In this document: positions 35,753 through 37,620 of the stretch, one piece after another
Numbering within the stretch: position 1 is the stretch's first letter
Layout: each line of letters begins with the position of its first letter
NCBI GenBank assembly: GCA_018820925.1
Contig: JAHJNJ010000017.1
Span: forward strand, 8,064 to 72,063
Length of the DNA: 64,000 nucleotides
Reading direction: 5' to 3'
From: Gammaproteobacteria bacterium
GTDB lineage: Bacteria; Pseudomonadota; Gammaproteobacteria; Burkholderiales; Gallionellaceae
Position numbers and translations under genes: made by a program
Notes under the pieces: generated by a model
What the model saw: the letters and a program-made list of their open reading frames with translations, nothing else
Databases searched by the model: none
Told to the model about the DNA's origin: nothing

Positions 35753-35789
35753 TCGTGAAAGACGCAGTTGGATGAATGCTCTGATAATT

Positions 35790-37481
35790 TGTAGTAGTTC
35801 CAACTTCATCTGACAGATACTGTCCGAAGTTCGGCCTAAGCGGACTATCGCGAGATCTCTTTGTTGCTTCTGCTCTAGGACTAATAACGGACGGTTGAAA
35901 TTTCTCTAAGTAGCCGACCTTTATGCATGTATAAGCCAGAGATATACCTTTTGGCATATTGCCTTGCTGTTAACTGCAGCCTAAGCTTCGGCATCCTTAC
36001 TTACTATGCATCCCTCGTTGTTTCCAGCAGCACAGACTCGCAGGTCCGTCTATTAATGGTCAGTTCATCATGGAAGAAGAAAAATGAAATCCTCAACCCT
36101 AAATACGTTGTTGGTTGCTAAGTCTATCTACACCGAAACAAAAAGCTTGGTTAATTCGGGCGACAAACATTTCTGTACTGCAGGAATTATCCTGCTCCAG
36201 GATTTTGTTGAGCTAGTTGTCTTGGCAGCATTGGATGAGCTAGATGTTGATGAACAAAGAAGTCTGGAGTCCAAATGTTTTGACGAACTGCTAGGGGAAT
36301 TAAAAATTCAGGGAATTCCAATAATTAAGTCAGGAACCATCAAGGCATTGAATAAGCAGAGAGTGATTTCAAAACACTATGGTCAACTGACTGAGTCTGC
36401 ATCTGCGGTTAATTATTTCAATGTGGCAGAAATATTTGTTGATGACCTTTTGAAAAAAGTCACCGGAAAAACGCTTCAAGAAATCTTTATGACAGACCTC
36501 CTAAAGGAGGGGGCGGTTAAAGAAGCTGTGAAATTTGCAATTACTTTGTCTGACCAAGAAAACTTCATCGATGCATTAGTTGAACTACGAAAAGCTTTTT
36601 TTCTAGGGTACGAGAAAGACTTTTCAATCTACGCATGGAAAGATCAAGATAAAGTTCACTCTCCCGCTGTTGGGCTATTAAGTTTTTTTCGTGGTGGCAC
36701 CAAGGCCCACAACTGGAAGAAGAACAAACAGTGGATCGATGAAAATGTCACAGAACCTACAGATTACGTTCAGATAGATTACGATCAATTAAAAATTGAC
36801 TGCATGGAATGGGGACTTAGTACCGTTCATGTTGATAACTTCAGGAGGCTGACACCTAAGGTAATCGAGACAGCGAAAGACCAATGGCATACAAGTTACG
36901 AATCAGGCCTTGTCGCCAATGAAGCGAACATTGAAAATTTCCGTTATTGCTTGGATTTGCTATTGGATTTTCTACTAAAAAAGCAGGAGTTTGATTCCAG
37001 AATGAAATGGCCAAAGTCAGAAAAATCCATCCCCCCACCACCTATTTATATTGATAAGCCTGTTTATGAAAAACCAAATCCGGGATCAAAAGTTGTGCAT
37101 ATGGTCCAAGCTGATTATTTCTATTCAGTCGATAGGGTCGTAACAGGGTTTGATAGCAAGGAGCGATATTTATACGTCCATTTATATCAAGAAGATAATG
37201 GTGCTAGGATGAATCATGTTCGCGGCTACCTACTTGTTGAAGAAGAAAACTAACAAAGTCATGCCGTCGGACAAAAGCGTGGGTCGGGCGATGCGCCCGC
37301 TTAATTAAGCTTAAGCAGGCGCATTCAAGACGATGAAATGAACCGGAGTCGAATTGTTTTTGCCACTCATAAAATCGAGTGACTACTGTTGGCCATAGCG
37401 GAAGTTGCGCTCCGCTATTCTGAATTTCCGCAATGGCCGAATTTCGGACAGTGTCTGTCAGATCAAGTCGCGACTACTACA
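35790..37481. mobile_element. Non-autonomous transposable cassette with 47-bp TGT...ACA terminal inverted repeats and 7-bp target duplication
   Basis: Left IR 35790-35836 versus reverse complement of 37435-37481: 41/47 identical; GATAATT at 35783-35789 and 37482-37488; no transposase inside. Confidence 0.85.
36084..37253 (+). CDS. AT-rich hypothetical protein with HEPN-like N-terminal domain
   Basis: 389-aa ORF, visibly AT-rich; QDFVEL helix plus LNKQRVISKHYG (R-x4-H). Confidence 0.6.
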   Translation: MKSSTLNTLLVAKSIYTETKSLVNSGDKHFCTAGIILLQDFVELVVLAALDELDVDEQRSLESKCFDELLGELKIQGIPIIKSGTIKALNKQRVISKHYGQLTESASAVNYFNVAEIFVDDLLKKVTGKTLQEIFMTDLLKEGAVKEAVKFAITLSDQENFIDALVELRKAFFLGYEKDFSIYAWKDQDKVHSPAVGLLSFFRGGTKAHNWKKNKQWIDENVTEPTDYVQIDYDQLKIDCMEWGLSTVHVDNFRRLTPKVIETAKDQWHTSYESGLVANEANIENFRYCLDLLLDFLLKKQEFDSRMKWPKSEKSIPPPPIYIDKPVYEKPNPGSKVVHMVQADYFYSVDRVVTGFDSKERYLYVHLYQEDNGARMNHVRGYLLVEEEN

Positions 37482-37503
37482 GATAATTCATTATGCTGCC
37501 CAT

Positions 37504-37561
37504 GTAGGTGCGAATTCATTCGCACATAGCTCAATGGGCGTGCGAATGAATTCGCACCTAC
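37504..37561. repeat. Perfect inverted GTAGGTGCGAATTCATTCGCAC REP doublet
   Basis: 22-bp arms, exact inverse. Confidence 0.85.
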
Positions 37562-37620
37562 AAGCACCTCAACTGCGTTTTCCTGTTTTATTGCGGTATC
37601 AGCCCCGCCCGCGCGAAGCT

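Follow-up and report, generated by a model that had tools for sequence, protein, structure and literature searches.

A three-domain HEPN gene on a terminal-inverted-repeat element of a Gallionellaceae bacterium, a candidate one-protein anti-phage ribonuclease

The window analysed here is a 64,000-nucleotide stretch from a gammaproteobacterium of the Gallionellaceae (assembly GCA_018820925.1, contig JAHJNJ010000017.1, positions 8,064 to 72,063 of the forward strand), in which a 1,692-bp unit bounded by terminal inverted repeats (TIRs) carries a single gene encoding a protein of 389 amino acids (aa). Residues 1-128 of this protein very probably constitute a HEPN domain with an intact and invariant catalytic set, E43 and R93-x4-H98, for which RNase activity is predicted, and this domain is followed by a helical domain without known fold and by an SH3b-like beta domain. 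The gene is solo, is found in at least eight phyla on quite different mobile vehicles, and represents a new and unnamed family. From its genomic context and by analogy with HepS, a partner-less abortive-infection protein, we lean towards the reading that it is a self-contained HEPN ribonuclease serving as a one-protein abortive-infection (anti-phage) module.

The HEPN domain and the two domains that follow it

The open reading frame (ORF) given in a preliminary description of this DNA, 36084-37253 on the plus strand with 389 codons for amino acids, is exact. The same description had recognised a HEPN pattern in the N-terminal ~130 aa, based on QDFVE (residues 39-43) and an R-x4-H motif within LNKQRVISKHYG (residues 89-100), and this assignment is borne out by the predicted fold, the position of the motif, the invariance of its residues and the Pfam HEPN matches of relatives. 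Two of the refuting conditions named in that description, a lack of structural resemblance to HEPN and a variable R/H pair, were examined and neither applies. In an AlphaFold2 model of the full protein made from the family alignment (mean predicted local distance difference test score, pLDDT, of 85.9), helices 3-23, 28-52, 83-99 and 105-127 form a four-helix up-and-down bundle, with an additional helix 66-75 as an insert. Using Foldseek, residues 1-128 were matched to at least nine independent HEPN structures, the best of them 2hsb (AF_0298) with a probability of 0.99, a target-normalised template modelling (TM) score of 0.75 and a root mean square deviation of 2.7 Å over 132 columns; the others include the HepT toxins 5yep, 6m6u, 7bxo, 8xdj and 7ae6, as well as sacsin (3o10), ST0689 (1wol) and 1wwp. 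Since the Foldseek E-values of the HEPN matches are weak (0.5-3), the argument for the fold is drawn from how strongly HEPN entries are concentrated among the matches and from the TM-scores.

In the model, R93 (nt 36360-36362) and H98 (nt 36375-36377), separated by VISK, are located at the C-terminal end of helix 83-99, and helix 28-52 carries E43 (nt 36210-36212) and D40. The block N90-K-Q-R93-x3-K97-H98-Y-G-Q-L does not vary among 50 aligned homologs, D40 is conserved in at least 90%, and across 65 relatives with identities down to 21% no columns of the protein are invariant other than E43, N90, R93, K97, H98 and W268. The R-x4-H motif is thus not a chance match, because N90, R93, K97, H98 and E43 remain invariant in all 65 members down to this level of divergence. 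Of these divergent relatives, 16 also match the Pfam HEPN family PF05168, with a best E-value of 2.3e-5.

The gene is under strong purifying selection, with a ratio of non-synonymous to synonymous substitution rates (dN/dS, NG86 method) of 0.11-0.12 against homologs at 92% and 81% DNA identity. This ratio rises along the protein: it is 0.04-0.05 for the HEPN domain, 0.12 for the middle one and 0.25-0.29 for the C-terminal one, which is hence the fastest-evolving part.

The middle domain has invariant residues of its own (R169, E177, W217, P225, the stretch NFRRLTP at 252-258, W268 and C289), and the idea that it could be a second, degenerate HEPN domain was dropped, as it contains no conserved R...H pair. 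A separate model of residues 130-389 (pLDDT 86.0) gave no significant match to PDB structures in the fold search, leaving the middle domain without a known fold. The only recurrent local similarity was that of the beta domain to bacterial SH3-type domains, namely the endolysin 4krt (probability 0.91-0.96) and NlpC2 (6biq). The expectation that the C-terminal ~70 aa would be rich in beta structure holds for roughly 60 of them, as beta strands were predicted at residues 326-385 by each of two independent AlphaFold2 models. The PHROGs family phrog_37995 (E 2.8e-7), a phage family of unknown function with a profile of 299 positions, is remotely related to residues 28-306 and spans the HEPN and middle domains without the beta domain. 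The coordinates of all these parts and of the element around them are collected in Table 1.

Table 1. Features of the TIR element and its borders, in window coordinates
Feature	Coordinates	Strand	Basis or remark
Left target-site duplication copy, GATAATT, 7 bp	35783..35789		Direct reading; the same heptamer abuts both termini
Left TIR, starts TGTAGTAGT	35790..35844	+	Inverted-repeat search (61-nt arms, 82%) and alignment
Non-coding cassette leader	35845..36083	+	GGAAG Shine-Dalgarno-like box ~9 nt 5' of the ATG
Gene of the 389-aa three-domain HEPN protein, stop codon included	36084..37253	+	ORF call; dN/dS 0.11-0.12
HEPN domain, aa 1-128	36084..36467	+	AlphaFold2, Foldseek, invariant residues, PF05168 matches in relatives
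Middle domain, aa 131-306	36474..37001	+	AlphaFold2 models; mostly helical, beta hairpin 259-271
Proline-rich linker, aa 307-325, KWPKSEKSIPPPPIYIDKP	37002..37058	+	Lower pLDDT, no secondary structure
C-terminal five-stranded beta domain, SH3b-like, aa 326-389	37059..37250	+	Two AlphaFold2 models; Foldseek; dN/dS
CTAAC box over the stop codon	37250..37254	+	Position matches the R'' box of attC sites 3' of the Vibrio (L002) and L066 homologs
GC-rich hairpin, 14 bp, 3' of the gene	37291..37324		Inverted-repeat search
Right TIR, ends ACTACTACA	37427..37481	-	Inverted-repeat search and alignment
Right target-site duplication copy, GATAATT, 7 bp	37482..37488		Direct reading and alignment

The solo gene, its element and its other vehicles

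Homologs are numerous: 163 matches were obtained in a database clustered at 90%, all annotated as hypothetical and nearly all of 384-398 aa, and the family amounts to 374 representative clusters at 50% identity. Its members are spread over at least eight phyla, including Vibrio parahaemolyticus, Acinetobacter baumannii, Aeromonas, Stenotrophomonas and Pseudomonas. The preliminary description had found no antitoxin or MNT partner inside the cassette, and indeed no second gene is present there. Clustering of neighbouring genes at 42 loci likewise revealed no MNT, antitoxin-like gene or other conserved partner: among ORFs of at least 60 aa within 4 kb, the largest neighbour family occurs in five loci only, and among ORFs of at least 25 aa within 600 nt the recurrent ones are alternative frames inside the HEPN gene. 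The gene is called solo because no neighbour, large or small, is conserved across these more than 40 loci. At the level of whole replicons, a tblastn search of 50,697 phage records gave no carriage of the gene, despite the phage-derived relative phrog_37995, and one of 72,556 plasmids carries it. The gene has a lower GC content than its flanks in 38 of 44 loci, with averages of 42.7% and 54.2%, respectively.

Here the vehicle is the 1,692-bp unit at 35790-37481, with inverted ends of 55-61 nt that are 82% complementary (TGTAGTAGT...ACTACTACA), read TGTAGTAG... and have TG...CA tips. One passenger gene is present; no transposase was found within the unit, nor any cognate transposase. The insertion site of the unit has a GGDEF-EAL gene on one side and an efflux operon on the other, and the HEPN gene is absent from all 18 congener genomes. 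In two congeners (G004 and G006) the GGDEF-EAL and efflux outer-membrane genes are 62 and ~250 nt apart, as compared to ~1,900 nt here, the congener spacer being too diverged to define an empty site to the base. With its TIRs, a target-site duplication (TSD), no transposase and absence from the site in relatives, the vehicle has the features of a non-autonomous TIR element, which upholds the earlier claim of mobility. The claimed AT-richness was likewise observed, the GC fraction being 0.40 at 36001-37000 against ~0.55-0.62 in the surrounding sequence of a genome of roughly 57% GC. An identical element at the identical site was found in an independent groundwater metagenome run, which hence represents the same strain and no new insertion site. 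The cassette leader is conserved (92.5%) with a single contig, L065, from another metagenome.

The element resembles mobile insertion cassettes (MICs) and miniature inverted-repeat transposable elements (MITEs) in its long TIRs with TG...CA tips, 7-bp TSD, one passenger, lack of a transposase and ends that recur in the genome, and it differs from them in a very low copy number, confinement to one genus and the cognate transposase not having been found.

Homologs occupy several other kinds of vehicle. In the chromosomal integron of V. parahaemolyticus (L002), which has 15 attC repeats in 9 kb, the gene lies between two of these repeats in a cassette of 1,312 nt, larger than any other in that stretch of the array. 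On two metagenome contigs (L066 and L067) the gene is followed by an attC-like site, and the bottom strand of the L066 site folds to a long imperfect hairpin (-35.4 kcal/mol, z = -6.5). A P4-like satellite carries the gene in Methylomonas albis, with the integrase on one side and the Ogr/Delta gene on the other; in P. rhodesiae the gene is located in an integrase island beside an AAA_15/21 ATPase, and in Desulfonatronum within a cluster of toxin-antitoxin (TA) and nuclease genes. Immediate neighbours are a DUF2806 protein in Aeromonas and an Abi_C (AbiJ-type HEPN) protein in A. baumannii, and in Methylophilus the gene belongs to a defence island together with AAA_15/21, SMC-like, ubiquitin-like/ThiF/BubE and patatin genes. 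The gene is a portable unit acquired by several capture systems.

The window copy was also considered as an integron cassette and rejected: the 126 nt after the stop codon do not adopt an attC-like fold (z = -0.7 and -1.3) and no array is present, and for these reasons it is not a cassette of that kind. A CTAAC(A)A box encloses its stop codon, an arrangement also seen at the R'' box of the attC site of the Vibrio cassette (L002:9158-9162), and the same box occurs a few bases past the stop in the L066 cassette (about 1530-1536). An origin of the TIR-borne copy from an integron cassette with a decayed attC site is hinted at by these boxes, and the hairpin 3' of the gene (Table 1) is likely either a terminator or the centre of such a site. 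The organism does carry integron cassettes besides the TIR cassette, because at the start of another of its contigs (C40:1-1500) at least three direct repeats of a ~75-nt attC-like site (GTCTAAC...GCGTAGGGTTAGGT) alternate with small ORFs; this array is closely followed, at C40:1576-1632, by a fragment from the inner part of the TIR-family repeat.

Further copies of the TIR family are found in the same genome at C40:131408-131785, C22:1290-1467 and C41:26892-26939. The ends belong to a repeat family of the form TGYAGTAG...CTGACA...CTGTCCGA|TTCGGCC, which includes a cargo-less MITE-like unit of ~450 nt and solo ends; it is present in one or two copies in 5 of the 18 congeners and in none of 12 other genera of the order, and is hence genus-restricted. 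An IS110-family transposase gene (C22:253-1215; PF01548, E 1.6e-20; PF02371, E 1.1e-18) adjoins the copy on C22. In L065, which carries a 92.5%-identical HEPN cassette, homology ends at the palindrome centre of the left TIR, CCGAAG|TTCGG, and the foreign flank (L065:1-50) starts with GCAATGTGCCATTTGC, the same 16-mer that stands 3' of the IS110 gene on C22. These observations suggest that an IS110-type element targets these TIRs, as IS4321 and IS5075 target the inverted repeats of Tn21. The L065 boundary G|TTCGGCC had been considered as a cassette crossover, and a foreign insertion in the TIR explains it better.

Just outside the cassette, at 37503-37562, lies a perfect palindrome with 23-nt arms (TGTAGGTGCGAATTCATTCGCAC / GTGCGAATGAATTCGCACCTACA), which resembles repetitive extragenic palindromes (REPs), has many copies in the genome and is covered by metagenome reads at very high depth. 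Relatives have a different REP, GTAGGTTGGGCA..., at this intergenic position, and an Rfam search of the element and its ends returned only sub-threshold microRNA noise on the neighbouring REP-like palindrome. In one congener (G003, locus L050) the outer-membrane efflux gene is missing 3' of the GGDEF-EAL ortholog, and the spacer, which contains a tandem heptamer run (CACGAAATA repeated ~5 times), continues into the gene of the resistance-nodulation-division (RND) pump. Within the cassette, the sole other ORF of at least 50 aa is one of 64 aa at 35927-36121, in the leader and extending over the start codon of the HEPN gene; the other loci lack a counterpart of this ORF, which is probably spurious.

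Relation to known HEPN systems

The closest parallel in kind is HepS ('HEPN Solo'), an abortive-infection protein of the Salmonella prophage Gifsy-1 (STM14_3211; Sargen et al., Nature 2026, PMC13043305). HepS has no partner, is non-toxic on overexpression and rests as a tetramer with misaligned R/H residues, until siphovirus tail-tip proteins activate it to cut tRNA anticodon loops; its family is defined by a length below 250 aa and the absence of additional domains (PMC13043305). The protein described here shares with HepS the single HEPN domain, the R-x4-H motif (R100-H105 in HepS, R93-H98 here), the lack of a partner or inhibitor and the carriage in accessory slots of mobile elements. However, with 389 aa and two further domains, a helical one of novel type and an SH3-like one of beta strands, it falls outside the HepS definition, and whereas HepS is often prophage-borne, the present family was found in none of the phage records. 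No match described as HepS was among the PDB-sequence results or the top 50 fold results, the presence of HepS in the PDB set being unconfirmed.

HepT (DUF86) toxins are among the best N-terminal fold matches and have the same Rx4H motif. They are proteins of ~130 aa always encoded beside an MNT nucleotidyltransferase antitoxin that AMPylates HepT, whereas no MNT or other conserved neighbour accompanies the gene here, and for this reason the protein is not a HepT-MNT toxin. ApeA, AbiV, AbiU2 and AbiJ likewise unite in one polypeptide a HEPN effector and a further region that is poorly understood, but their domain order and extra domains are unlike those found here, and no match to their Pfam or PADLOC models, including HEPN_Apea and Abi_C, was obtained at E <= 10.

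Integron cassettes are documented reservoirs of one-gene defences, among them the HEPN-like protein Esos of a V. cholerae integron, which is experimentally anti-phage and causes growth arrest (Darracq et al.). Esos and the 'integron cassette HEPN' (PDB 3jrt; Anantharaman et al. 2013) resemble the V. parahaemolyticus homolog in being HEPN or HEPN-like single-gene integron cassettes. The structure 3jrt is neither among the phmmer and hmmsearch results at E <= 10 nor in either of the Foldseek top-50 lists. The V. cholerae systems differ in being described as small, Esos having been compared by its description only. The main caveat on the novelty of the family is that Esos, or one of the V. parahaemolyticus cassettes tested by Getz et al., may belong to it. 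In kind, then, the protein resembles solo HEPN abortive-infection proteins, and it is a demonstrable member of none of HepS, ApeA, AbiV, AbiU2, AbiJ and Esos.

Proposed function, alternatives and significance

As a self-contained abortive-infection ribonuclease, the protein would oligomerise such that two R-x4-H motifs form one RNase site, as in other HEPN enzymes, and would be inactive at rest, so that no antitoxin would be needed. The middle and the SH3-like C-terminal domains may act as a built-in sensor or autoinhibitor, from which a phage component would release the RNase; the RNase would then cut RNA, perhaps at tRNA anticodon loops as HepS, PrrC and RloC do, and so stop translation and phage growth. 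The gradient in dN/dS fits a conserved catalytic head and an adaptable recognition end, without being proof of them, and the sensor role suggested earlier for the C-terminus is compatible with the higher dN/dS of the beta domain. More tentatively, and as a possibility that we rate somewhat below even, the family could represent a new self-sufficient sensor-effector anti-phage system, in which a HEPN RNase is held in check by an undescribed helical domain and an SH3-like phage-detecting domain, and which is small enough to move as a single gene among integrons, satellites, defence islands and TIR cassettes.

The anti-phage role is an inference from defence islands, integrons, a satellite hotspot and the HepS-type analogy. 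The defence-type context is supported by the neighbours at 34 further loci, 278 in number, among which PADLOC and Pfam recognise SIR2, AriA, reverse transcriptase, Cas1, type I and IIG restriction-modification and DarT1-NADAR genes, and also TOTE, PIN, SocA and MqsA. Several results weigh against the reading as an abortive-infection RNase. Many of these neighbours are housekeeping genes, and the tallies are raw counts. No consensus sigma-70 promoter was recognised within the cassette. No PADLOC, Pfam-defence or NCBIfam model fits the protein: the PADLOC check proposed in the preliminary description returned no defence model, its sole match being DrmC (E 0.022 over 50 aa), which is noise, and direct family assignment was given up after Pfam, NCBIfam, PADLOC and PDB-sequence searches had yielded nothing beyond such hits (ribosomal L36e, DrmC). 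With respect to the HEPN domain itself, the residue following R93 is hydrophobic (V), and many HEPN families have a polar residue after the motif arginine. Moreover, a Pfam search with the 389-aa protein gave no HEPN match at E <= 10, and HMMER profiles of the whole protein and of its N-terminal part found no HEPN chain among PDB sequences, HMMER being too insensitive at the distance between this family and those chains. Because of these misses, the HEPN link rests on the fold, the motif and the relatives.

An alternative that we consider unlikely is that the HEPN RNase serves the mobile element itself and has no anti-phage role, being either a toxin for addiction or stabilisation or a dormancy factor of integron cassettes and small transposable units that is induced by stress. 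The gene does reside on selfish vehicles and in TA-rich neighbourhoods, and such an element-serving role was proposed for integron-borne HEPN domains by Anantharaman et al. (PMC3710099). However, addiction requires a labile antidote, none of which is conserved beside the gene, and those solo HEPN genes of integrons and prophages that have been validated proved to be anti-phage. The protein might also depend on a partner that is unlinked or encoded by the host, for example an antitoxin, a chaperone or a nucleotide signal, and would then not be truly stand-alone. Control in trans has precedents in some HEPN effectors, through cyclic nucleotides (Csm6/Csx1) or antitoxins (HepT-MNT, RnlA-RnlB), and the two extra conserved domains could bind a ligand. 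Since the gene occurs in at least eight phyla and on many vehicles without a recurring neighbour, a partner of this sort would have to be universal, and we regard such dependence as quite improbable.

Slightly less credible still is a non-nuclease HEPN-like domain, serving for binding or as a scaffold, with the real activity residing in the middle domain, which is rich in invariant residues of its own and has no known fold match. Some HEPN domains are non-catalytic (PMC3710099), but such domains usually lack the R/H pair, whereas here R93, H98 and E43 are invariant and the HEPN domain has the lowest dN/dS of the protein.

The interpretation as a self-contained anti-phage RNase places the family within a known kind, the stand-alone HEPN defence or toxin genes carried on mobile cassettes, as a new three-domain member that will not surprise a specialist. 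No known immune module is simpler than a single protein that both senses infection and kills, and few such proteins, HepS among them, are mechanistically understood. The present family is large and occurs in clinically and environmentally important Proteobacteria, and it is unannotated everywhere and missed by PADLOC, Pfam and NCBIfam. As it combines a clear HEPN active site with a domain of no known fold, it offers a cheap and well-defined experimental target, requiring one gene and two point mutants. Its study would add to the solo HEPN defences on record and could show by what means a HEPN RNase is kept under the control of a built-in sensor, in a case where one defence-type gene is exchanged among quite different capture platforms.

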